A stretch of 64,000 nt of DNA from Gammaproteobacteria bacterium (GCA_965207345.1 OZ242280.1:760316-824315), one strand, 5' to 3'. Positions 41,319 through 59,045 are shown, numbered from the stretch's first letter. Notes: generated by a model not told the origin, from the letters alone. Translations and numbers: made by a program.

Positions 41319-41729
41319 ATGCAAGTCGGCGTGCGATGGTTAAATGATATGAAGATGGAGGCAAAAACACAAAATGGCTATAAAATACATATGGATGGGC
41401 CACCCCATTTCGGCGAGCAGAATAATGGTGCACGTCCGATGGAGATGTTACTGATGGGTTTGGGTGGTTGTATGACGGTTGACGTTGTGGGCATTTTAAA
41501 AAAAATGCGTCAAATTATTTATGACTGCAGTGTGCAGATTAAAGCAAAACGTGCGCCAGAGCCACCAAAAATATTTACGCATATTCACTTGCATTTTATT
41601 TTAAAAGGGGATAATTTGGAAAACATTAAGATAATAAAAGCGCTCAATTTATCGGCGCATAAATATTGTTCAGCGTCTATGATGTTGGGGAAAATGGCAA
41701 ATATTAGTCACGATTTTGAAGTATTATGA
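41319..41729 (+). CDS. OsmC/Ohr family peroxiredoxin-like protein
   Basis: 136 aa with RPMEMLLMGLGGC and a second Cys context (HKYCSAS) typical of OsmC. Confidence 0.7.
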   Translation: MQVGVRWLNDMKMEAKTQNGYKIHMDGPPHFGEQNNGARPMEMLLMGLGGCMTVDVVGILKKMRQIIYDCSVQIKAKRAPEPPKIFTHIHLHFILKGDNLENIKIIKALNLSAHKYCSASMMLGKMANISHDFEVL

Positions 41730-41974
41730 ATCGACTTTTAACTTTTGGCTGGCTAGGGACAATTACTGGTATCATCGGTGGCGTTTTAATAGCACTTAAC
41801 TCGCTTATTTATTCTAAGTTTAGTTTTATTTTTTTTTTATTTTCAGCAGGTAGTTGGTTTATTCAAGGTTATAAAAATAGAGATTATCCGCTTGTGTTAC
41901 TAAATTGCGTATTTATGGTGATTGATATTTTAGGGATTTATAGGTGGTTTTTTCTAAATACTACACCTATTTAA
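41726..41974 (+). CDS. Small three-helix membrane protein, unknown function
   Basis: 82 aa with three hydrophobic helices. The start overlaps the osmC stop (ATGA). The stop lies 6 nt from the first CRISPR repeat. Confidence 0.4.
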   Translation: MNRLLTFGWLGTITGIIGGVLIALNSLIYSKFSFIFFLFSAGSWFIQGYKNRDYPLVLLNCVFMVIDILGIYRWFFLNTTPI

Positions 41975-41980
41975 GCGAAC

Positions 41981-43399
41981 TTTCTAAGCCGCCTATGTGG
42001 CGGTAAACAAACTTTATAGCCTGTGTGCATCATGCCTGTATTTCTAAGCCGCCTATGTGGCGGTAAACATTGGGAAAAAGTAAGAAAGAACTAATTGATT
42101 TTTTCTAAGCCGCCTATGTGGCGGTAAACAAATTGATGAAGTGATTAGTCATTTAAAGCTATTTCTAAGCCGCCTATGTGGCGGTAAACATAGCGGAAGG
42201 TGATGGAAATGCAATAGCAAATTTTCTAAGCCGCCTATGTGGCGGTAAACTTCAAATTGGTTTGATAGATACTCTAACTAGAGAAAATTTCTAAGCCGCC
42301 TATGTGGCGGTAAACACCAAAATTATATTATAGACTTAGCAGCGGACATTTCTAAGCCGCCTATGTGGCGGTAAACTAATTTGCCGAATAAGACTACTTT
42401 GTGATACTTTTCTAAGCCGCCTATGTGGCGGTAAACAGACAACAGTGTCGATCGTAGTAAACGATAATTTTTCTAAGCCGCCTATGTGGCGGTAAACTCA
42501 TCAATCATTTTCTGATTGAAATCTTTTAATTTCTAAGCCGCCTATGTGGCGGTAAACCTGTTAGAGGTTCATTGGGCGTGTCATATACATTTCTAAGCCG
42601 CCTATGTGGCGGTAAACAATCAATAATTTTTGGTTCAATGCAGCAGATATTTCTAAGCCGCCTATGTGGCGGTAAACCCTTAATTCATCAAGATAGCTTG
42701 ACATTTTAATTTCTAAGCCGCCTATGTGGCGGTAAACCTATTGATTCTGCCCTAGTGTAATGAATGTATATTTCTAAGCCGCCTATGTGGCGGTAAACCT
42801 TTGGCGTTGCTTGCTTTACAAGCGTTGTTATTTCTAAGCCGCCTATGTGGCGGTAAACGATAAGTTAAGCTAATTTATATTTTCAATTTCTTTCTAAGCC
42901 GCCTATGTGGCGGTAAACTCATAAGTGATAAAGTTCATACCTCCAATATCTTTCTAAGCCGCCTATGTGGCGGTAAACATATTATATTATGATACCGTGC
43001 TCACATTCTTTTTCTAAGCCGCCTATGTGGCGGTAAACTCCTCAGCATCTCATTGATTATTTTGGGTTAATTTCTAAGCCGCCTATGTGGCGGTAAACTA
43101 TGGGTAAGAGGTCTAGGTTGTTAAGCAAGATTTCTAAGCCGCCTATGTGGCGGTAAACTATTCTAGAATTCGCAAACGAAAAAGTAGATTTTTCTAAGCC
43201 GCCTATGTGGCGGTAAACACTATCACCTGTTTTTGATAATGTTTCAAATTTTTCTAAGCCGCCTATGTGGCGGTAAACATTCTGGCGTGTCAATTTCTGG
43301 CGCGGCTCCATTTTCTAAGCCGCCTATGTGGCGGTAAACTTTTTGTTTTTCATCGTAAAACTCCGTTTTGCTTTCTAAGCCGCCTATGTGGCGGTAAAC
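41981..43399 (-). CRISPR. Type I-F CRISPR array: 24 repeats of 28 nt, 23 spacers
   Basis: All 24 repeats were counted by hand and all are identical. The plus strand reads TTTCTAAGCCGCCTATGTGGCGGTAAAC. The transcribed sense is GTTTACCGCCACATAGGCGGCTTAGAAA, with 5-bp stem CCGCC/GGCGG, 5-nt loop and a CTTAGAAA handle. Sixteen spacers are 32 nt, six are 33 nt and one is 37 nt. Repeat starts are 41981, 42041, 42102, 42162, 42223, 42288, 42349, 42409, 42470, 42530, 42590, 42650, 42710, 42771, 42831, 42891, 42951, 43011, 43071, 43131, 43191, 43251, 43312 and 43372. Confidence 0.97.
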
Positions 43400-43530
43400 A
43401 GTATTTTAAAACGAAAAAATAGCGTTACAACAAATTAAAAACACATATTTCTTTATTTTGACCTATGTTTTTTAACACTGTTGTAACACTTTGATTTTAC
43501 TATATTTTTAAAGAGCAGTTAAATTAATGG
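43400..43530 (-). promoter_or_regulatory. CRISPR leader (AT-rich, between cas6f stop and first repeat)
   Basis: 131 nt, very AT-rich, located between cas6f and the array as in I-F loci. It contains a perfect 9-bp inverted repeat, GTTACAACA (43424-43432) / TGTTGTAAC (43479-43487). Confidence 0.55.
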
Positions 43531-44112
43531 CTAAAAAATAGGGACTGTTGCTACTTTACTTAGCCCAAAGCGATTAAATTCTCCATCAATACTATATTTT
43601 TGCACTTCACCAAACACAATATACAGCCTGTACGAACTTTTTGTAGATGTACTTTGTAATTCTAAATAGGGATTATCTAAACCTGTTTGGAACATTTTAG
43701 CTTTATACTGTTTGATGTATTCTTTTACACTTGCATCTGTGGATAAAATCCCCCTACTTTTCTGATACACTACTCTTTTTTTAAGTTTAGCATTGGTCAT
43801 GGTTTGGCGAGTACGAGAGAAAGTTCTATATCCCTTAATTTTATCTGGTATGGGTAGGATAGCACTTATTTTGCAATAGCTAGATAAATTTTCTAGCCAG
43901 TTTAGATTTTGCATCTCTTGTAACCTTACCTGTCCAGAGTGAATGCGGATAACACATCCGAAAAGTCTTTTTGCTTCCGGAAAGCTTACCCCTATGTCAC
44001 TAGCCTTTATGTCGTAAATGGCTTTGTGGAGTTTGGCATAAACTTTATTAAACAGCATATTTTTATACGTTTCTGCGTCTGGTTGGATAGTTAGATTAAT
44101 ATAATAATTCAT
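43531..44112 (-). CDS. cas6f: Cas6f (Csy4) crRNA endoribonuclease
   Basis: 193 aa, collinear with Pseudomonas Csy4 as I recall it: MNYYINLTIQPD vs MDHYLDIRLRPD, IGVSFPE, RIH, LQSTSTKSSYRLYI vs LRSQSTGQHFRLFI, and C-terminal FGLSKVATVPIF vs YGLSKGGFVPWF. Confidence 0.9.
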   Translation of the reverse strand: MNYYINLTIQPDAETYKNMLFNKVYAKLHKAIYDIKASDIGVSFPEAKRLFGCVIRIHSGQVRLQEMQNLNWLENLSSYCKISAILPIPDKIKGYRTFSRTRQTMTNAKLKKRVVYQKSRGILSTDASVKEYIKQYKAKMFQTGLDNPYLELQSTSTKSSYRLYIVFGEVQKYSIDGEFNRFGLSKVATVPIF

Positions 44113-44120
44113 ATCTCTTC

Positions 44121-45125
44121 TTAAACTCTAATATTAGAAACATATGCTAAGCCTTTTTTACCTAGATAAAAACTAGAGACGCCGGCATTCTCAATCATAT
44201 TCTTTATCTCTTTAGCCTTATCTCGGCTTATATCTAAATTAATTTCAAGTCTTCCGCTAGCTTTAGTCATCAATGGTATAACTACTTCAATGTCTTTTAT
44301 TTTCTCTGTACGCATATAGGGATTGCCCCAGATTTTCTTCCCTTTTCCCGTGGTAAATCTATTCATAAATTCTCTAGTAGTAAAAGTTCGTTTTGAAACA
44401 CCGCTAATACCACCAGCTTTATTTTTTGCTGATGACATATCAAACCGATTAGATAATCTATCTAGTTGTAAATAAAGCGAAGAGTAATAAAAACTCTTAG
44501 GAAATATTTTATCTTTTTTTAGATATTCAATACCAGGAAAATTTTCATTTAGGACTTGCAGAGCTTTTTGAACTACACCTTCATTAATGACAGATTTTTC
44601 TTTATCAATTAATTTTAATTTATTCCTAATAGTTATTGGATTTCCTTTAATAGAACTCAATACAGGCTCATCATTGATTATAAATTTACATAATGATTCA
44701 AAATCAAGCCATAACACACCCCAAAACTCATCAGAATAATCAGAAGAAAATATTACATCATTTTCTTTGATTGATCCAGTAAATGATTCTCGATCAGTAC
44801 TGCCAGTAATATTTCTAATGTAAGTCATTTCATTGGTTTCAATAGATTTATCTTTAAAAGATACTTTATCATTCTTTACAATGCCTTTAAAGAAATAATT
44901 ATTATCTTCTTTACTTTTATAAAGTTTACGTTGATCACCTATGATTCTATTTAGTACACCCATAACTGTATTAAGTGTTACCTCCATTTTTTTAAAGTTT
45001 TCAATATTTTTTAGTTTAGTATATGAAGCAATAAATTTTCTCCCTTTTGAAGGTAATTTTTCATTGTTATTACCATCCAAAAATGAATTACGCCAAGAAG
45101 ATGCATAATCTATAATTACTTTCAT
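44121..45125 (-). CDS. Type I-F variant Cascade subunit, provisionally Cas5fv/Cas5f2-like
   Basis: 334 aa ORF tightly packed (3-8 nt gaps) between the preceding effector ORF and cas6f. I recognise no resemblance to Csy1/Csy2/Csy3. Its size and position match the second effector gene of the minimal I-Fv operon of Shewanella putrefaciens CN-32. Confidence 0.5.
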   Translation of the reverse strand: MKVIIDYASSWRNSFLDGNNNEKLPSKGRKFIASYTKLKNIENFKKMEVTLNTVMGVLNRIIGDQRKLYKSKEDNNYFFKGIVKNDKVSFKDKSIETNEMTYIRNITGSTDRESFTGSIKENDVIFSSDYSDEFWGVLWLDFESLCKFIINDEPVLSSIKGNPITIRNKLKLIDKEKSVINEGVVQKALQVLNENFPGIEYLKKDKIFPKSFYYSSLYLQLDRLSNRFDMSSAKNKAGGISGVSKRTFTTREFMNRFTTGKGKKIWGNPYMRTEKIKDIEVVIPLMTKASGRLEINLDISRDKAKEIKNMIENAGVSSFYLGKKGLAYVSNIRV

Positions 45126-45128
45126 TAT

Positions 45129-46118
45129 TTACTCCTCTAAATCTTTAGCATAGAAATATACTGCATAATCAGATTCTAGTTGCTCGGATATAGTGCTTTC
45201 ATCTTGTTTGATTCGCATCATTTTATGACTATCATTGTAATCTATGAGCACGTCATCAACATACATGTAGGATTTTGCTTGACGAATACATAACTCTCTT
45301 ATCATTTGCAATGTGTGTTCAATTAGTATTTTTATAGCATCATTATTTAATAAAATACCTTTTTCTCCCTCTTCAAAAATAGTGCCACCCCTCACATAGT
45401 TGTTACGAAAGATTGCTTGTGGATTTAATCCTGGATTAAGTGATGAAATATAATTCTGAACAGTTTGTGCAACTTCTTCACCTTGCCCATCTTTAATTAC
45501 CATAGCACAACGGTCAAACTTTCTGTCTAACGAAATAAACTGTAGTTGTTCGATGCTAATTGAGCCGTAAGAAGTATACTTAGTATCACCAAAAGTTGTT
45601 TTTGAAAAGAAAGAAGCACTTTTTTCTGTACCTGATTTTGTTGGCTCTTTTTCTTTACTTCCAGAACGACCCATTTGTTCAAAATTGCCATTACCTAATT
45701 CATCGACAAAATCCTCCATTAATAGTGAGCTAGTACGTTTACATTGACTTGATGTCACAACATAACCACGTACTAAACCTGTGATTGAACCCAAAACATC
45801 TTGCAAATTTTTTTTTGCAGCATAGTGTATATCAAATGCTTGATCTCTAAATAAATGATGACGAATACAATTTTGACTTATATAGAGCGGTGTTTCTTTG
45901 AAGTTTATATCCGTTGCTTCTTTCCTATATTGATAGCCTGTTTCCTCTTTTATTTTTCCAGTAAGGTTTGTATAACCTCTTAATTTTGGTAAACTATGAT
46001 TATTACCGGGTTTACCGTCATCACCTTTTAATGTTGTCGGTCCATTCCAATTAACTACACCATGTCCTAGTGCTGTAATTTTAAAATCAACACTTTTAAT
46101 ACCTGTTATTTTTTTCAT
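45129..46118 (-). CDS. Type I-F variant Cascade subunit, provisionally Cas7fv/Cas7f2-like backbone protein
   Basis: 329 aa ORF starting 2 nt after the cas3 helicase stop. Its size and position match the first effector gene of minimal I-Fv operons. The assignment rests on gene order only. Confidence 0.5.
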
Positions 46119-46120
46119 TA

Positions 46121-47869
46121 TTACTCTCCTTTGAGTTTATCATTTGAAATAACCCCTATAGGTTGTTTTGTTCCTATTGCATAATACATCGCATAAGGAT
46201 TTTGTCTTGCATCTACTTTTGCTAAATCTTCCAGCGTATAGCTTAAATAAATAGGCGTGTCTTGTTCTTTAGATTTTTTTAAATAAATCTTATCCTTATA
46301 TCTTGTAGTAGATTTAACGCCATATTCTGTATCATTTTTTATGTTGTGATGTTTTTTCTCCATAAATGCTAATAAATTCTTTTTATCTTCACCATAACCC
46401 ATAATTGACTCTACAGACAGAGTCAATGACTCCTCTCTACAAGCATATTCATTTGGAAATTCTTCCTTATTATTATTAATATTCATAACAGCCATTTGCA
46501 CGAACCGATTATTACCACGCAAAGAATTATTTTTAATTTTAACTTGGTTGTCTTTTGGTTGTTTTTTATTTGGAAAACAAGTTGGATCTATGTCTTTTTT
46601 ATCAATCCACAAAACACTTTTTTTTAATGCTCTGAGTAAATCTTGCTCAATAGCTTTTATACTAGAGGGATCTTTATAAAACTTTTGATAAATTTGATAC
46701 ATTTTTGTAATCGTAACAATTTTGTTTTCTGGCAGAGATTTTTCCAAAAACTCAAGCCATGCTTTGGTACTTTGCAAACAAAACAAACTATTTAGAAATT
46801 TAGCATTACCTAAGCACTTACCTTTTCTGACATGTTCTGATACTGCTGAAATATAAATATTAGGCTTAGTATTCTTACCAAATCTATCTAACCGCCCTAT
46901 TCTTTGTAGCCAATTTTCAGCGTTAGTGAATTCGCTTATCATTTTATCGCAGGTAATATTTAATGAGGCTTGCACAATGGGTCCTGCTCGTAAAACATCA
47001 TAAGATTTTGACCCATTTTGTTTAAATGAACCAAACACTTTATTAAATAGCTTTCTTTTGTCGGACGGTTTGAATTTACTATGAATTAAAATTGCTTTTT
47101 CTTTCTTTTGATTGTGAATAAAACTAAGCTGGGCATTGATAGCAGTATTGCTAATAACAAAGGTTTTTTTGTTTTTATCTTGTAATTGACACAGCGGATT
47201 AGTTTCATCAATTAATTTTTCATCAAACTTCTGAAATTTTATTTGGTATTGGTTCTGGTTATAACTTTCAATGCTGATAATATCATCTTCATACAAGCCT
47301 AATAATTCTTTAATAAAGTGAAAATTAGGTGTGGCAGAAACCAATAAGGTTTTGTTTTCTCTTTGTAATTTTTTACACTCCACTAATTCTGCAAACAACA
47401 AATTAAAACCAGTCATTGGAATATATTCATGATATTCATCAAACACGATATGGGCATTCATAAATTGAACCAAGCCTGTTACTTTTTTATGAGTGGTAAT
47501 AGTATTAATAATTTGGTCAATAGTAGTTAAAACAATATCTCCTGAAAATTCTTGATTTTCTGGAGTTGGAGTTTCACTGCCATTTTGATAAAGAGTTTTA
47601 AATTCGTCTGTGCAAATTTCAATTTTAGTATTTGGCAAATATTCCTTGCTGGTTAAATCATTCACCAAACCTTGACATATTTGCACTCTAGGACAGACCC
47701 AAATAATTTTTTTCGCATTATTATTTGCCGCCCATTCCAAAGCTATTTTGGTTTTACCACAACCTGCTGGACCACTTAATACCCCCACGGTAATTTCTTC
47801 ATCAGTTAATTTTTCCGCCGCTGATTTTTGGCTTTTATTTCTATTGCTATTTGAAGGATCTTCTCTCAA
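46121..47869 (-). CDS. cas3: Cas3 SF2 helicase portion of Cas2-3 (separate ORF here)
   Basis: 582 aa with Walker [10 protein letters not shown] (compare Pa Cas2-3 ASTGCGKT), DExH-like FDEYHE, SATP (motif III) and a C-terminal RIGRLDRFG (motif VI). It has no ATG start; the frame opens with TTG at 47869 straight after a stop-rich stretch. Confidence 0.8.
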
Positions 47870-47932
47870 AACCCTGTAGACATACTTTAATATCTTTAGT
47901 TAATCTTCGTTCAATTAAGAAAGCATCATTTA

Positions 47933-48130
47933 CTAATTTTTTAATGTATTTTGTTCAATATGCATCTTCAAGTCTTCTGCATTTAGTACAGATACCAGTC
48001 TATCAGCAGTCACCACAACTGCTCGTGCAATATTGTTTTTAGCATTGCTTTTTATATCTATTTGGTAATCTTTAAAACACTCATTTGGACCATAACTTTT
48101 ATAATGAGGTAAGGGAAATGCGTAATTCAC
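47933..48130 (-). pseudogene. cas3: Frame-shifted internal piece of cas2-3 carrying HD motif V
   Basis: This 65-codon frame is the same frame as the helicase ORF and different from the Cas2-HD ORF. It encodes ...IARAVVVTADRLVS..., matching the LILMLADHHYSS-type last HD motif of Cas3. It is bounded upstream by TAA (48133-48131) and downstream by TAG (47935-47933). Confidence 0.6.
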
Positions 48131-49034
48131 TTAGATTATCCGCATCGGCATGTTTAAGCAAATGACCAATTTTTAAATCTAAATTATAATTTGCACTATT
48201 TGTATTAATAGCAGTTATCAGTCCATGTATTCTTGGGGATAAACTATTAATAGTTTCATTTATTAATGATGCCATAAGCTTTTTGTAAATAACTTCTAGT
48301 GTTTTAAACTCTTCTTTTCTAACAGGCTTTGCATGATGCCAATAAACCGTATGTTTAACTAATTTTTTGTTTGGCTTATTAATAGAGGTATCATTTCTAT
48401 TATCAAACAAATAATAAAGCAGTAAGGATATTTCATTGTGCCTTGGGTGTTTTTCAAAGGAAAATTTTTTATCAATATGTTGCCCTTCTTCAGGAATTTC
48501 TTCAATTAATTTCTTTTTCGTTTTATCTAAAATCCATTTTTGAAAAGCAGGGTCAATTTTTCCCATATCGTGCCAACAGCCAGCTACAAAAACTGCTTTG
48601 GCAAGTGTATCGTCACCAACTAATTTTTGGCATAACAAATAAGACACATAACCAACAGCAAATAAATGTTGATCTAAAGGTTGTTTTTTGGTATTTGCAT
48701 ACATAGTATTCATATTTATATGATCCTCAATTTCTCCAATAAATGGATTTTTTTCAGTATAATTAACCGCTACAATCCCCTCACTGTTAAATTTATCTCT
48801 GTTACCAATAATCCACAATAACTCGGTTCTAAGCCTTGATTTTAACTGATGACAACTAATAGCGGTGTTTTTACTAGCTGTTTTTCTTAATAACTTTCTA
48901 ACGGCGTCCAATCCTTCTTGGGTGATGGGGGTTTGCCAGGTATTACTACCGATGCGGTTAGCGAAAGCATCTAGTACTCTGCGGGTACGTTTGAGGGCTT
49001 TTTTCTCACATTCGCTGATAAAAGTTACAAGCAT
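48099..49034 (-). CDS. cas3: Cas2 domain fused to Cas3 HD nuclease domain (N-terminal part of Cas2-3)
   Basis: 311 aa. The N-terminus MLVTFISECEKKALKRTRRVLDAFANRIGSNTWQTPITQEGLDAVRKLL is collinear with the I-F Cas2-3 N-terminus (MNILLVSQCEKRALSETRRILDQFAERRGERTWQTPITQAGLDTLRRLL). HD motifs are CWHDMGKIDPAFQ, HPRHNEIS and YWHH. Confidence 0.85.
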   Translation of the reverse strand: MLVTFISECEKKALKRTRRVLDAFANRIGSNTWQTPITQEGLDAVRKLLRKTASKNTAISCHQLKSRLRTELLWIIGNRDKFNSEGIVAVNYTEKNPFIGEIEDHINMNTMYANTKKQPLDQHLFAVGYVSYLLCQKLVGDDTLAKAVFVAGCWHDMGKIDPAFQKWILDKTKKKLIEEIPEEGQHIDKKFSFEKHPRHNEISLLLYYLFDNRNDTSINKPNKKLVKHTVYWHHAKPVRKEEFKTLEVIYKKLMASLINETINSLSPRIHGLITAINTNSANYNLDLKIGHLLKHADADNLSELRISLTSL

Positions 49035-49035
49035 T

Positions 49036-49995
49036 TTACGTTTTCTCTACTTGGCTACAAATGTTTTTCACTGTATCAAACATAAAATCTAGCGCCCTGT
49101 ATTTGACAAAGTTTAGAAGGCATTGAGCGCGAAATTCTTGTTCACTTATTTTTTCCTTAGCGCAGATGAATGCCCAAGGCAGGATGAGACTATCTTTAAT
49201 AAGATCAGCGATGTCAAATACTAATGCACCACGACGGGTTTTACCATGCATTAAGGCAAGACCGTGCGGAATGCCTAATACCCAAAGCGTAGTGGCAGCT
49301 AGCCCGTAAGCGAGGTAATTGCCATGGTTTAGGAAATTATTGGCAAGATCACCACTGACATGAGTGCGGGTGAAATTATTGGTTTTAGTGCTAGCTGCAG
49401 CTTGTCTGTATAATGCCTTGGTAAGGTTTGCTTCATCGGTTAGTAGCTTATTAACGGTGCTGGCATTAATAATTTTTTCTCTAAATTTAATAAGTAAGTC
49501 ATCATCAATGGCAAAACCTTCTAGTTTCAAATCTTTACTCCTTCCCCAAACCTTTGCTAAGAAATCAAGTCGTCTTTGTTGTATTTGTTTAGCAAAATAG
49601 AGGCGTTTTTGCTCATCAAACCAAAATTGCATCCATGCCTGGACATATTCAGTTGGGCGATATTCACTTTGCGGGCTCAGCCATTCTATCTCACTTGTGG
49701 CAATAAGTGGTGTACCGCCTGATCCGCTAAAACCAACTAAGACACCTGCCTGGGCTAACATGCGCATAGCACACTGAGTAATAGAAGTGCCGTTACCTAA
49801 TAAAATACAAGTAGTATTAGCGATGGGGATATTCCAGTATTGTTTATTATCTTGTTTCTCAGCAAGGTATAAAACTCTGCCATCTTTTTGCATCACGCGA
49901 CATTTTTCTAAATAATAAATATTAGCGCGCTTTGAATGTAATATGGCTTTTAAATCAGTTAATTGTTCCATGAATAGGTAATGGTTTGCTGACAT
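49036..49995 (-). CDS. cas1: Cas1, type I-F
   Basis: 319 aa with long identical stretches to Pseudomonas Cas1f as I recall it: ILHSKRANIYYL, YWNIPIANTT, GTSITQ.AMR.LA.AGVLVGF, PQSEYRPTEY, NFLNHGNYLAYGLAATTLWVLGIPHGLALMHGKTRRGALVFDIADLIKDSLILP. Confidence 0.95.
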   Translation of the reverse strand: MSANHYLFMEQLTDLKAILHSKRANIYYLEKCRVMQKDGRVLYLAEKQDNKQYWNIPIANTTCILLGNGTSITQCAMRMLAQAGVLVGFSGSGGTPLIATSEIEWLSPQSEYRPTEYVQAWMQFWFDEQKRLYFAKQIQQRRLDFLAKVWGRSKDLKLEGFAIDDDLLIKFREKIINASTVNKLLTDEANLTKALYRQAAASTKTNNFTRTHVSGDLANNFLNHGNYLAYGLAATTLWVLGIPHGLALMHGKTRRGALVFDIADLIKDSLILPWAFICAKEKISEQEFRAQCLLNFVKYRALDFMFDTVKNICSQVEKT

Positions 49996-50925: not shown

Positions 50926-51018
50926 GGAGAGATGGCCGAGAGGCTGAAGGCGCTCCCCTGCTAAGGGAGTATGGGGTTTGTAGCTCCATCGAGGGTTCGA
51001 ATCCCTCTCTCTCCGCCA
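50926..51018 (+). tRNA. tRNA-Ser (anticodon GCT), 93 nt, CCA encoded
   Basis: GGAGAGATGGCCGAGAGGCTGAAGGCGCTCCCCTGCTAAGGGAGTATGGGGTTTGTAGCTCCATCGAGGGTTCGAATCCCTCTCTCTCCGCCA. The acceptor is GGAGAGA/TCTCTCC, the anticodon stem is CTCCC/GGGAG with loop CTGCTAA, and there is a long variable arm. Confidence 0.9.
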
Positions 51019-51109
51019 TAAGCGTTTAGTAATTGTAGGATAAAAAATTCTACCTTCAATAATTCCATTAAACCCAGGACTACTCTATGGATAAGCATAG
51101 AGTACCAAT
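51018..51109. repeat. Left arm of a 92-bp inverted repeat (partner 58052-58143), starting at the last base of tRNA-Ser
   Basis: ATAAGCGTTTAGTAATTGTAGGATAAAAAATTCTACCTTCAATAATTCCATTAAACCCAGGACTACTCTATGGATAAGCATAGAGTACCAAT matches the reverse complement of 58052-58143 with 4 mismatches. Confidence 0.9.
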
Positions 51110-53314: not shown

Positions 53315-53524
53315 TCATTTAATTGGAACAACTTTATTTGCACAGGGGCCTTTTTGACCTTGGCCAACTTCATATTCTACTGCCTGTCCATCATTTAGCG
53401 TTGCAAAACCGCCCCCACTTTTAATTTCCGAATGATGAACAAAAAGATCTTTTCCTCCATCCTCGGGTGTAATAAAACCAAAGCCTTTATCGGCGTTGAA
53501 CCACTTAACTGTACCTTTATTCAT
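53315..53524 (-). CDS. Cold-shock protein (CspA family), copy 1
   Basis: 69 aa from the ATG at 53524. [34 protein letters not shown] carries the RNP1 (KGFGFI) and RNP2 (VFVHH-like) motifs. The track ORF has a 16-codon spurious extension. Confidence 0.9.
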
Positions 53525-54191
53525 GTCGTTTTCTCTAGTGTTTTGATGAAAAATTATATATTCCCGACCCAATTCATCGGTTGGATGTCGAAATTGTGAT
53601 ATTCTCAGTTTTTTGTATTAGGTATCATTATCAATAGATATATCCTGAGCTCTCATTAATGGAGGCTATTCAGCGTGAGTTTTCCCAGAATTTGAGTCCA
53701 TTCTTTTTAGGCGTTTTTCTTCCTTTTTGCAAGCTCTCTTTACCGTTTTTTAAATGTGTAATTAGATTTTACCATTAAAAGTCTCTTATTTTAATTTAAA
53801 AATGTTGATCTTGGAGTAAAACATATACCTCTAACTTAAGCATCTTGTCATAAAGTATTGTATGTTACCTAATAATCCTGAAAACAATTCATAATTTTAT
53901 GTAATAAATTTCAGTATTCTTAATAGTGGATAATTCTCTGACATTGCACTACTATGCATGCTTGTTTTACCAATTGTTTTAATTATCTCAGTTAAAAACT
54001 CTGAGACTGTTATGACAGTGCCACCAGCAAGAATTGGATAATTTACATTACTGCCGCCAAAACTTAACAGACATATTTATTTGATTTCTGATGGTATTTC
54101 TAGCCCAGAAAAAATACCCGGGATATATTTTCGACCCGCTCTAAATTTCTTTTCAAAGTGAGCTTCACGCTTTTCTTAACTACTGGCATCA
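53325..54191. repeat. 0.87-kb direct repeat, copy 1 (partner 55342-56218)
   Basis: Aligned by eye along the whole length with scattered substitutions and small indels. The offset is about 2017-2027 bp. Confidence 0.9.
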
Positions 54192-55334: not shown

Positions 55335-55541
55335 TTAAAGAGGAACAACTTTATTTGCACAGGGGCCTTTTTGACCTTGGCCAACTTCATATTCTACTGC
55401 CTGTCCATCATTTAGCATTGCTCGCCCGCCCTCACTTTTAATTTCCGAATGATGAACAAAAAGATCTTTTCCTCCATCCTCGGGTGTAATAAAACCAAAG
55501 CCTTTATCGGCGTTGAACCACTTAACTGTACCTTTATTCAT
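55335..55541 (-). CDS. Cold-shock protein (CspA family), copy 2
   Basis: 68 aa from the ATG at 55541. It is identical to copy 1 apart from a few residues ([11 protein letters not shown] vs [11 protein letters not shown]) and the C-terminus. Confidence 0.9.
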
Positions 55542-56218
55542 GTCGTCTTCTCTAGTGTTTTGATGAAAAATTATATATTCCCGACCCAATTCATCGGTTG
55601 GATGTCGAAATTGCGATATTCTCAGTTTTTTGTATTAGGTATCATTATCAATAGATATATCCTGGCTCTCATTAATGGAGGTTATTCAGCGTCAGTTTTC
55701 CCAGAATTTGGGTCCATTTTTTTTAGGCGTTTCTCTTCCTTTTTCTTCTTTTTCGCAAGCTCTTTTTGCCGTTTTTTAAATGTGTAATTAGGTTTTACCA
55801 TTAAAAGTCTCTTATTTTAATTTAAAAATGTTGATCTTGGAGTAAAACACATATCTCTAGCTTAAGCATCTTGTTACAAGGTATTGTATGTTACCTAATA
55901 ATTCTGAAAACAATTCATAATTTTATGTAATAAATTTCAGCATTCTTAATAGTGGATAATGTCTCTGACATTGCACTACTATGCATGCTTGTTTTACCAA
56001 TTGTTTTAATTATCTCAGTTAAAAACTCTGAGACTGTTATGACAGTGCCACCAGCAAGAATTGGATAGTTTACATTACTGCCTCCAAAACTCAACAGACA
56101 TATTTATTTGATTTCTGATGGTATTTCTAGCCCAGAAAAAATACCCGGGATATATTTTCGACCCGCTCTAAATTTCTTTTCAAAGTGAGCTTCACGCTTT
56201 TCTTAACTACTGGCATCA
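55342..56218. repeat. 0.87-kb direct repeat, copy 2
   Basis: Partner of 53325-54191. Confidence 0.9.
55682..55801 (-). CDS. 39-aa highly basic small protein upstream of csp copy 2
   Basis: Own translation gives MVKPNYTFKKRQKELAKKKKKEEKRLKKMDPNSGKTDAE. The homologous stretch in copy 1 (53775 downward) has CAA changed to TAA at codon 12 plus a 9-nt deletion. Confidence 0.35.
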   Translation of the reverse strand: MVKPNYTFKKRQKELAKKKKKEEKRLKKMDPNSGKTDAE

Positions 56219-57905: not shown

Positions 57906-58059
57906 TAATGACGTTTTCTAGGGCGTATGGCAACTACATTGACTTTCTTCATCAGTGTTGCGGTTTGATAAATTTAATCATAGCGTTGGCATTATCATTG
58001 ATTAATTTTCTCTGATTTGATAGCAATAACTGCTACGAGGAAGTTTGAGTAATTGGTAC
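57906..58059. repeat. 154-bp direct repeat, copy A (partner 58750-58903): fragment of IS3-family orfB
   Basis: About 97% identical to 58750-58903 (4 mismatches seen). On the minus strand it encodes ...QLLKLPRSSYYYQ..., a degraded IS3 OrfB N-terminus. It is joined to the inverted-repeat arm through the shared pentamer CCAAT. Confidence 0.85.
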
Positions 58060-58143
58060 TCTATGCTTATTCATAGAGTAGTCCTGGGTTTAATGGGATT
58101 ATTGAAGGTAGAATTTATTATCCTACAATTATTAAACGCTTAT
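58052..58143. repeat. Right arm of the 92-bp inverted repeat, abutting the ssrA 3' end
   Basis: Reverse complement of 51018-51109 (4 mismatches). It is separated from the tmRNA discriminator base by CTCTCC, which copies the last six acceptor-stem bases of tRNA-Ser. Confidence 0.9.
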
Positions 58144-58149
58144 GGAGAG

Positions 58150-58492
58150 TGGAGATGGGGGGAGTCGAACCCCCGTCCGCAAACCTTCAACTAAAAAATA
58201 CTACATGTTTAGTATAGTCTATTAAATTTAACAACACATCACCCGACTAACAGGGATATGGATGCGATTCCAGTTAAAATTTAACCGCCATATCCTGAAA
58301 AATACGACAGCGAGTCTGCTTATTGACCGCCGACTTAAAAGCACAGACAACCTCCAAGAGGCGGTTAGCATTAAGCTGCTAAAGCGTAGTTGTCTTCTGC
58401 AACTATTGATTTAAGAAGTTTTTACGAGCTATCCTAATCCTCGACATGCTCTTTTAGCATCCAACTTTGTGTCGAAACCAAAAGTCATCCCC
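58150..58492 (-). ncRNA. ssrA: tmRNA (SsrA), about 343 nt, CCA not encoded
   Basis: The minus strand has 5' GGGGATGACTTTTGGTTTCGAC...GCTCGTAAAAA... with resume codon and tag ORF GCA GAA GAC AAC TAC GCT TTA GCA GCT TAA (tag AEDNYALAA). The 3' end is GGACGGGGGTTCGACTCCCCCCATCTCCA. The acceptor GGGGATG/CATCTCC includes the G3:U pair. Confidence 0.92.
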
Positions 58493-58530: not shown

Positions 58531-59045
58531 GGCTTGTATACCTTGATCAGAGTGAAGCATAAGTCGGTTAGTATTGGGTTGCTAATTGCCTTGATATCAA
58601 ATCCAACACACTGGCTAAATAACTCCAACCCTGATAAGTTTTAATGTAAGTAATATCACCTGCCCAATGAGTACTTATTGATTGCTGTTCAAATTCTCAA
58701 TTTAACAGGTTTTCTGCTTTTTATGCATTAGTTTTCAGCATTAGGGTAATAATGACGTTTTATAGGGCGTATGGCAACTACATTGACTTTCTTCATCAGT
58801 GTTGCGGTTTGATAAATTTAATCATAGCGTTGGTATTATCATTGATTAATTTTCTCTGATTTGATAGTAATAACTGCTACGAGGAAGTTTGAGTAATTGG
58901 CACAATTCTCTAGTGCTGTATTGTTTGTGAGCCCTGTTCATTTTAGTAATCATGTTGGCAATGGATTGTTCTGAACAAACAAAGCTGTTGCCTTTTTTAG
59001 GATGTCATTATCTTTTTGCGAACGCCATAGTTATTTTTAAGTGAT
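58531..59045 (-). mobile_element. IS3-family insertion sequence remnant (degraded orfA end, A6G frameshift window, orfB N-terminal half)
   Basis: The minus strand reads ...DNDILKKATALF (orfA end containing the A AAA AAG slippery motif). The -1 frame reads ...YSTRELCQLLKLPRSSYYYQ, followed by [39 protein letters not shown] (first DDE Asp region) and LHSDQGIQ (second Asp), with several stops and frameshifts in between. It is truncated just upstream of the ssrA promoter. Confidence 0.7.
58750..58903. repeat. 154-bp direct repeat, copy B (inside the IS3 remnant)
   Basis: Partner of 57906-58059. Confidence 0.85.

Follow-up and report, generated by a model that had tools for sequence, protein, structure and literature searches.

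Within a 64,000-nt stretch of the genome of a gammaproteobacterium (GCA_965207345.1 OZ242280.1:760316-824315; referred to here as the window, with positions counted from its first letter), a CRISPR-Cas locus is found on the minus strand. It consists of cas1, a disrupted cas2-3, an open reading frame (ORF) of 329 amino acids (aa), an ORF of 334 aa and cas6f, followed by a leader and a repeat array (Table 1). An earlier note on this DNA, made from the sequence alone, had described minus-strand ORFs of 319, 311, 582, 329, 334 and 193 aa at this site, and every one of them was recovered in its place. The genes are as tightly packed as that note had reported (1-8 nt), with measured intergenic gaps of 1, 2, 3 and 8 nt, apart from a gap of 229 nt that separates the ORF for Cas2 and the HD nuclease domain (Cas2-HD) from the ORF for the helicase. 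The 131-nt leader and the array that were said to follow cas6f are also present, with the array lying outside the coordinates that the note gave for the locus.

The repeat GTTTACCGCCACATAGGCGGCTTAGAAA, 28 nt in length, occurs in 24 copies without a single mismatch, the leader-distal copy included, where none would be expected by chance. It is a repeat of the I-F type, with a CCGCC/GGCGG stem and an ACATA loop, and all 24 copies pass the Rfam model RF01317 (CRISPR-DR4). The 23 spacers range from 32 to 37 nt and are mostly 32 nt long; spacer 19 (42251-42287) measures 37 nt and six others measure 33 nt. A scan of the operon for promoters and terminators was uninformative, returning 40 promoter-like sites against 39.9 expected. 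Of the other parts that the note had ascribed to type I-F, Cas1 matches the I-F-type model TIGR03637 and Cas6f matches PF09618 and TIGR02563.

Table 1. Features of the CRISPR-Cas locus, in window coordinates
Feature	Position	Strand	Evidence or context
cas1, 319 aa, I-F type, intact	49036-49995	-	TIGR03637 cas1_YPEST 459 bits; PADLOC Cas1fv 550 bits
cas2-3 (cas2-3f2), whole, four frame segments, repaired product 970 aa	46121-49034	-	repair and alignment
First cas2-3 ORF, 311 aa: Cas2 and most of the HD nuclease domain, H-D dyad CWHDMGK	48099-49034	-	PF21384, PF18019, TIGR01596
Out-of-frame 65-aa ORF holding the last HD motif IARAVVVTADRLVS	47933-48130	-	three-frame translation
Frameshift cluster, three shifts	47863-48114	-	three-frame translation, tblastn, codon inspection
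Shift 1: one extra base; frame restored by removing one base	near 48113		context ATTTCCCTTA
Shift 2: A6 run; one more A needed to restore frame	near 47937-47942		context TTAAAAAATT
Shift 3: one extra base; frame restored by removing one base	near 47864		context GAGAGAAGATCC
Last cas2-3 ORF, 582 aa, TTG start: RecA1/RecA2 helicase core and C-terminal domain	46121-47869	-	TIGR01587 120 bits, PF22590, PF00270
cas7fv (cas7f2), 329 aa, intact, backbone subunit	45129-46118	-	NF040577, PADLOC, PDB 5O6U_C
cas5fv (cas5f2), 334 aa, intact, alpha-helical (AH) domain in place of Cas8f	44121-45125	-	PF20158, PADLOC, 5O6U_F
Cas5fv R112, codon CGA, aligned with Q113 of Shewanella putrefaciens	44790-44792	-	alignment
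Cas5fv R251 and E252 (aligned counterparts in S. putrefaciens: K253 and D254)	44370-44375	-	alignment; coordinates computed from residue numbers
cas6f, Csy4-type endoribonuclease, 193 aa, intact	43531-44112	-	PF09618, TIGR02563, 5O6U_B
Leader, 131 nt, AT-rich, cas6f stop codon to first repeat	43400-43530	-	sequence
CRISPR array, 24 repeats and 23 spacers	41981-43399	-	exact repeat count; Rfam

Effector genes and subtype

Of the two ORFs between cas2-3 and cas6f, the 329-aa ORF matches the NCBIfam model NF040577 (type I-Fv Cas7fv) over positions 1-317 of 317 with 483 bits, where the score cut-off is 200 bits, and it also matches the PADLOC Cas7fv model (584 bits) and chain C of PDB 5O6U (E 2e-161). 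The 334-aa ORF covers positions 1-158 of 158 of the Pfam Cas5fv helical domain (PF20158, 191 bits) and positions 1-328 of 328 of the PADLOC Cas5fv model (463 bits), and its residues 1-333 align with chain F of 5O6U at 59% identity (E 9e-120). For Cas6f, PF09618 (160 bits) and TIGR02563 (144 bits) both match over their full length, and among PDB entries the I-Fv Cas6f scores best (5O6U_B, E 2e-41). No other NCBIfam Cas family matched either of the two middle ORFs at E <= 0.01. On these matches, with sequence identities to solved structures of at least 59%, the 329-aa ORF is identified as Cas7fv and the 334-aa ORF as Cas5fv.

The earlier note had guessed at Cas7fv and Cas5fv homologues and had asked for a comparison with Cas-specific profile models, which, together with the structure matches, came out in favor of that guess. 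The gene order cas2-3, cas7fv, cas5fv, cas6f, which the note had read from position alone, is now established by the family matches, and its alternative of a further-diverged replacement is rejected by the full-length matches to Cas7fv and Cas5fv models and structures. The claim that the operon is without cas8f also stands. Only two ORFs, both of fv families, lie between cas2-3 and cas6f, and because the gaps among cas2-3, cas7fv, cas5fv and cas6f are 2, 3 and 8 nt, there is no room for cas8f. Neither a cas8f nor a Cas11 gene was found in the operon, the rest of the window having had no exhaustive scan for a stray cas8f. The proposal that the middle ORFs form an effector not yet described and without relation to Cas5 and Cas7, or that they are the Csy2 and Csy3 of a degraded I-F1 locus, draws on nothing beyond the failure to recognize Csy motifs by eye; it is already refuted by the high-scoring, full-length matches to fv models and to the solved I-Fv Cascade and by the lack of space for Cas8f.

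The locus shows the composition of subtype I-F2, namely Cas7fv, a Cas5fv with an AH domain, no Cas8f or Cas11 in the operon, Cas6f, an I-F Cas1, and repeats with spacers of about 32 nt. The closest characterized system is that of S. putrefaciens CN-32 (PDB 5O6U, 5O7H and 9G44; PMC4937334, PMC12956352), which has the same gene set in the same order, followed by an array, and likewise has no Cas8 or Cas11. Its spacers are also of 32 nt, and its 28-nt hairpin repeat is also of the I-F type, with CTTAGAAA at its end. The window locus differs from it in the three frameshifts of cas2-3, in a Cas5fv with arginine, arginine and glutamate (R/R/E) in place of Q113, K253 and D254, and in its AT-rich, Thioglobaceae-like host of about 1.5 Mb, to whose composition the genes have ameliorated (about 30% GC). 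Type I-F1 (Cas8f/Csy1, Cas5f/Csy2, Cas7f/Csy3 and Cas6f/Csy4, as in Pseudomonas aeruginosa PA14) has Cas1f, Cas6f, the repeat type and coding DNA for a Cas2 domain fused to Cas3 in common with the window, whereas the window has no Cas8f gene and carries a Cas5 and a Cas7 of fv type; membership in I-F1 is ruled out by the presence of only two fv-family ORFs between cas2-3 and cas6f. Type I-F3, the Tn7-associated group of CRISPR-associated transposons (CAST), was also considered and ruled out, as cas1 and cas2-3 are present and Cas5fv is not a Cas8/5 fusion. In contrast to I-F3 loci, which lack cas1 and cas2-3 and have tniQ and tnsABC nearby, the window locus is flanked by rsmE, tRNA-Ser, osmC, trpC and kdsA.

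The subtype is already characterized and well populated, with solved structures. Relatives were confirmed in 114 species-representative genomes, 2095 Cas5fv homologues are present in the protein database (the nearest 71% identical), and 80 related I-F2 loci were fetched for comparison. A full-length Cas5fv was found in 78 of the 80, cas2-3 is in a single frame in nearly all of them, and the order cas1, cas2-3, cas7fv, cas5fv, cas6f was seen in 9 of 9 related loci inspected. The closest relatives (L001-L012) come from metagenome-assembled genomes (MAGs) of Methylococcales, Methyloprofundus, Cycloclasticus and Ghiorsea/Mariprofundaceae, which are bacteria of the deep sea and oxidizers of methane or iron. 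Their operon architecture is identical to that of the window, with protein identities of 78-81% for Cas7fv, 60-66% for Cas2-3 and 67-71% for Cas5fv. They differ from the window in having an intact single-frame cas2-3 and a Q-K-D Cas5fv, and none has the exact repeat of the window. The locus described here adds a member of I-F2 from a streamlined Thioglobaceae-like genome; only its cluster of frameshifts and its unique Cas5fv triad are out of the ordinary.

In I-F2 systems, recognition of the protospacer-adjacent motif (PAM) falls to Cas5, which reads it from the major-groove side, and recruitment of Cas3 falls to Cas7 rather than to Cas8 (PMC12956352). Following that model, the array would be transcribed from the leader, and Cas6f would cut each repeat at the base of the CCGCC/GGCGG hairpin and remain on the 3' handle. 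The resulting CRISPR RNA (crRNA) would carry one Cas5fv capping the 8-nt 5' handle CUUAGAAA and about six Cas7fv coating the 32-nt guide, in addition to the one Cas6f. Standing in for Cas8f, the AH domain of Cas5fv would read the PAM via the major groove, the Cas7fv backbone would then recruit Cas2-3 so that the displaced strand is degraded, and Cas1 together with Cas2-3 would acquire new spacers.

The frameshifts in cas2-3

Intact Cas2-3 proteins of related loci are 968-978 aa in length. In the window, the PADLOC Cas3fv model (951 positions) is divided between the two long ORFs, with positions 1-282 on the 311-aa ORF and positions 381-946 on the 582-aa helicase ORF (798 bits). The missing positions are present out of frame, as three-frame translation and tblastn with intact proteins gave a homology order of A to B to A to B between two frames. 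With the four segments joined, a product of 970 aa without an internal stop is obtained, 66% identical to that of L009 and 60% to that of L006, and colinear across junction motifs such as IARAVVVTADRLVS and CLQGFE. This repaired protein aligns in one stretch with the S. putrefaciens I-F2 Cas3 structure 9G44_A (E 8e-229). For the single-protein Cas2-Cas3 fusion of I-F2, the window thus holds colinear full-length coding DNA, which as written is spread over four frame segments. The disrupted junction of about 230 nt in the earlier note therefore needs amending: the 229-nt gap is real, but what underlies it is neither a deletion nor an insertion, and three frame changes are found instead.

Judging from its reading frames, cas2-3 as written makes no full-length functional nuclease-helicase. 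Immunity of the I-Fv system is abolished by a Cas3 HD mutant (PMC4937334). As the frameshifts leave no functional nuclease-helicase and I-Fv immunity needs the Cas3 HD nuclease, the locus as written is predicted to be dead for interference; primed adaptation is probably lost as well.

The persistence of two long ORFs, roughly equivalent to Cas2 with the HD domain and to the helicase with its C-terminal domain, could also be read as a functional split into separate Cas2-HD and Cas3 helicase proteins. Types I-A, I-B and I-D have such Cas3''/Cas3' pairs. The break is not a clean one, however, since about 80 conserved codons, the last HD motif (ADRLVS) among them, are found between the ORFs in other frames. 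A TTG within CLQGFE is the start of the helicase ORF, which has no ATG ahead of its Walker A motif. A cas2-3 match was obtained in 78 related loci; the gene is in a single frame in most of these, and none of the six exceptions resembles a two-gene arrangement. We consider a working split to be highly improbable.

A second proposal is that Cas2-3 has truly been lost while Cascade is kept for a role that needs no nuclease, for instance in binding DNA under crRNA guidance or in repressing transcription, with analogues in type IV and in the CAST-associated I-F3 systems. It fits the perfect preservation of Cas5fv, Cas7fv, Cas6f and the array beside a broken cas2-3. On the other hand, cas1 is intact too, and self-regulatory targets are not in evidence, as no spacer matched elsewhere in the 64-kb window even with as many as 7 mismatches allowed. 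Furthermore, the repaired Cas2-3 is without accumulated damage, which implies a break too recent for selection of a new role. This proposal is very unlikely, if slightly less so than the split.

Long-term decay of the locus was considered and rejected, as none of its Cas proteins is an outlier at near-invariant columns. Violations at such columns numbered 0 of 137 in Cas7fv, 1 of 68 in Cas5fv, 5 of 225 in the repaired Cas2-3, 1 of 21 in Cas6f and 6 of 156 in Cas1. Because the other Cas proteins are undecayed, the repeats identical and the repaired Cas2-3 normally conserved, what remains is either a very recent inactivation or an assembly artefact. We put the chance that the frameshifts are real, and mark a very recent inactivation, at about even.

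The competing explanation, to which we give somewhat less than even odds, is that all three frameshifts are assembly or consensus errors, caused for example by a mixture of strains, by low coverage at this site or by errors of long reads in short runs, and that the I-F2 system of the organism is fully functional. Several observations agree with it. All of the shifts are of ±1 nt and fall in simple contexts (TTTCCC, the A6 run and GAGAGAA), and they lie within 250 nt while the remaining 2.66 kb of cas2-3 is free of stops and shifts. The repaired Cas2-3 is as conserved as its intact homologues, with the other cas genes and the 24 repeats perfect, and a split guaB in a related long contig (L083) suggests that indels are possible in assemblies of this kind. 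Set against these are about 15 other genes tested in the 64-kb window, all of them full length despite many A/T runs at 34% GC. Full-length model matches were obtained for UvrA, ValS, CysS, GuaB, LeuB, OadA, an RND pump, MltD, RsmE and others, so that general sequence noise is disfavored. Moreover, cas2-3 is disrupted in other I-F2 loci also: among the 78 related loci, five have one in-frame internal stop (L020, L036, L037, L065 and L067) and one has an insertion (L073). Synteny with L083, whose ValS makes it the closest relative, extends to the RND transporter and breaks off before the CRISPR site, and is thus uninformative.

Two of these damaged relatives can be described further. In L073 (5419-5715, 7422-9995), the Cas2 domain is parted from the remainder of cas2-3 by an insertion of about 1.7 kb. 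L020, with its internal stop, belongs to a methanotrophic endosymbiont of Bathymodiolus.

Taken as a whole, the locus is best explained as a CRISPR-Cas system of type I-F2 (the former I-Fv) on the chromosome that is intact except for a frameshifted cas2-3 and that encodes an R/R/E Cas5fv, a reading to which we assign a probability of roughly 0.9. A number of points weigh against it. Three indels in about 250 nt of a 2.9-kb gene have a rough chance estimate of about 0.02, which is odd for neutral decay; a problem of assembly or consensus at this site is about as good a fit, and such a problem, or one complex mutation, accounts for the clustering better than slow neutral decay does. Exact-protein contig look-ups with Cas7fv, KdsA, Cas1 and the helicase ORF returned no second copy of the locus. 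There is a single assembly of the genome, and Cas5fv and the two cas2-3 ORF products each form a singleton cluster, so the frameshifts are seen in one sequence only. The steps of the mechanism given above are all drawn by homology from S. putrefaciens. Finally, no protospacer was found for any spacer in the searched sets, which leaves no direct sign of past targeting or of the PAM: the whole array had no match in phages and matched plasmids through its repeat only, and seven spacers (masked at every sixth base in four cases) had no match in viral contigs.

If the frameshifts are real, this locus would capture a CRISPR-Cas system at, or just before, inactivation, with only the nuclease gene hit and with Cascade, cas1 and the array pristine. 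Such a recent inactivation would be relevant to the loss of immunity in small or symbiotic genomes.

PAM-reading residues of Cas5fv and solitary repeats

In the structures from S. putrefaciens, no subunit other than Cas5 reads the GG PAM. It does so from the major-groove side with Gln113 and Lys253, with a further contribution by an aspartate in the same helix (PMC6546366, PMC12956352). In the Cas5fv of the window, none of these GG-reading residues (Q113, K253, D254) is matched, a departure from a hallmark of the model system and not from a criterion of classification. Arginine and glutamate occupy the aligned positions (Table 1), and the residue that follows R112 is E113 where the family has N. 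A survey of the triad in 199 Cas5fv sequences (80 derived from the loci and 119 database hits) shows how unusual this combination is: Q-K-D is present in 182, Q-R-D in 6, Q-K-N, K-K-D and R-K-D in 3 each, and P-K-D in 1, while R-R-E occurs once, in the window sequence only. In addition, the window Cas5fv deviates at 10 columns that are at least 90% conserved, the highest number among 80 sequences, for which the median is 2; at the strictest columns it is otherwise well conserved.

With R/R/E at these positions, the PAM preference may differ from the canonical GG. One tentative and on balance unlikely interpretation is that the PAM-reading surface has been re-tooled, such that this Cascade would recognize a PAM other than GG or would read GG differently. 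Alternatively, the deviations of Cas5fv may be the first signs of relaxed constraint. If re-tooling were true, the locus would represent a naturally occurring PAM variant of the most compact of the type I effectors, one on which engineering for genome editing is already under way. The R/R/E substitution is a concrete lead, cheap to test, toward a wider PAM range for I-F2 editors.

The exact 28-nt repeat of the window is absent from all 80 related I-F2 loci, and none was returned by the viral scan. Solitary copies were detected at two other places. The first is a plasmid of Moraxella lincolnii (NZ_CP147512.1, L081), in which one perfect 28/28 copy lies at 1505-1532 on the plus strand, in a short gap between genes of a type IV secretion operon and just upstream of a same-strand coding sequence (1558-2217); no second repeat occurs within 4.5 kb of it. 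The second, and the sole metagenomic match, is a perfect intergenic copy at 1147-1174 on the minus strand of contig JACCDZ012092048.1 (L082), where it follows a GC-rich, hairpin-like sequence and no array is present on the 1285-nt contig. Solitary repeat units on mobile elements have been described as RNA anti-CRISPRs (PMC10651486). The copies on L081 and L082 are candidate RNA anti-CRISPRs aimed at I-F2 systems; for the plasmid copy, the candidate alternatives are a Racr-like RNA anti-CRISPR and a Cas6f processing site.

Host and genomic neighborhood

The genome is a single contig of 1,486,647 nt, and the GC content of the window is 33.6%. ValS is 63-68% identical to proteins of Candidatus Thioglobus and bivalve gill symbionts and 85% identical to that of L083, a contig from ENA (European Nucleotide Archive). 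From these sequence comparisons, the host is identified as a small, streamlined, AT-rich gammaproteobacterium of the Thioglobaceae/SUP05-like type. The GC content of the cas operon, in 1-kb windows, is 28-39% and mostly 28-33%, near the host value. This host-like composition, together with nearest relatives from deep-sea Methylococcales, Cycloclasticus and Mariprofundaceae MAGs, suggests that the cas locus was acquired horizontally long ago and has ameliorated since.

On one side the locus is flanked by osmC and a short PnuC-like ORF, on the other by rsmE and tRNA-Ser, with trpC and kdsA also nearby. The PnuC-like ORF (82 aa, 41726-41974, plus strand) has a weak match to roughly the first third of the PnuC/NMN-transporter model (positions 4-67 of 175, E 0.0017) and stops 7 nt short of the last repeat; it may be a gene that was truncated on arrival of the CRISPR-Cas locus or of the array.

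Several repeated sequences were observed beyond the cas1 side. An inverted repeat of 107 nt with 91% complementarity (51003-51109 and 58052-58158) overlaps the 3' ends of tRNA-Ser (50926-51018) and of the transfer-messenger RNA (tmRNA) gene (58149-58492, minus strand), and brackets an ORF-poor stretch of 6.9 kb that adjoins the cas locus. The enclosed stretch could be what is left of an integrated element, or a segment capable of inversion. A sequence of about 0.9 kb is present twice (53318-54191 and 55335-56218; 94-99% identity, about 2.02 kb apart), and the duplication includes two near-identical genes for cold-shock-like proteins (53315-53572 and 55335-55589). Direct repeats of 51 nt, 98% identical and 844 nt apart, lie around the tmRNA gene (57906-57956 and 58750-58800). 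On the related contig L083 (13431-14895, 20130-22763), guaB is found in two ORFs, and genes for Vsr, AIPR and SAVED-domain proteins, which are likely defense genes, lie near uvrA.

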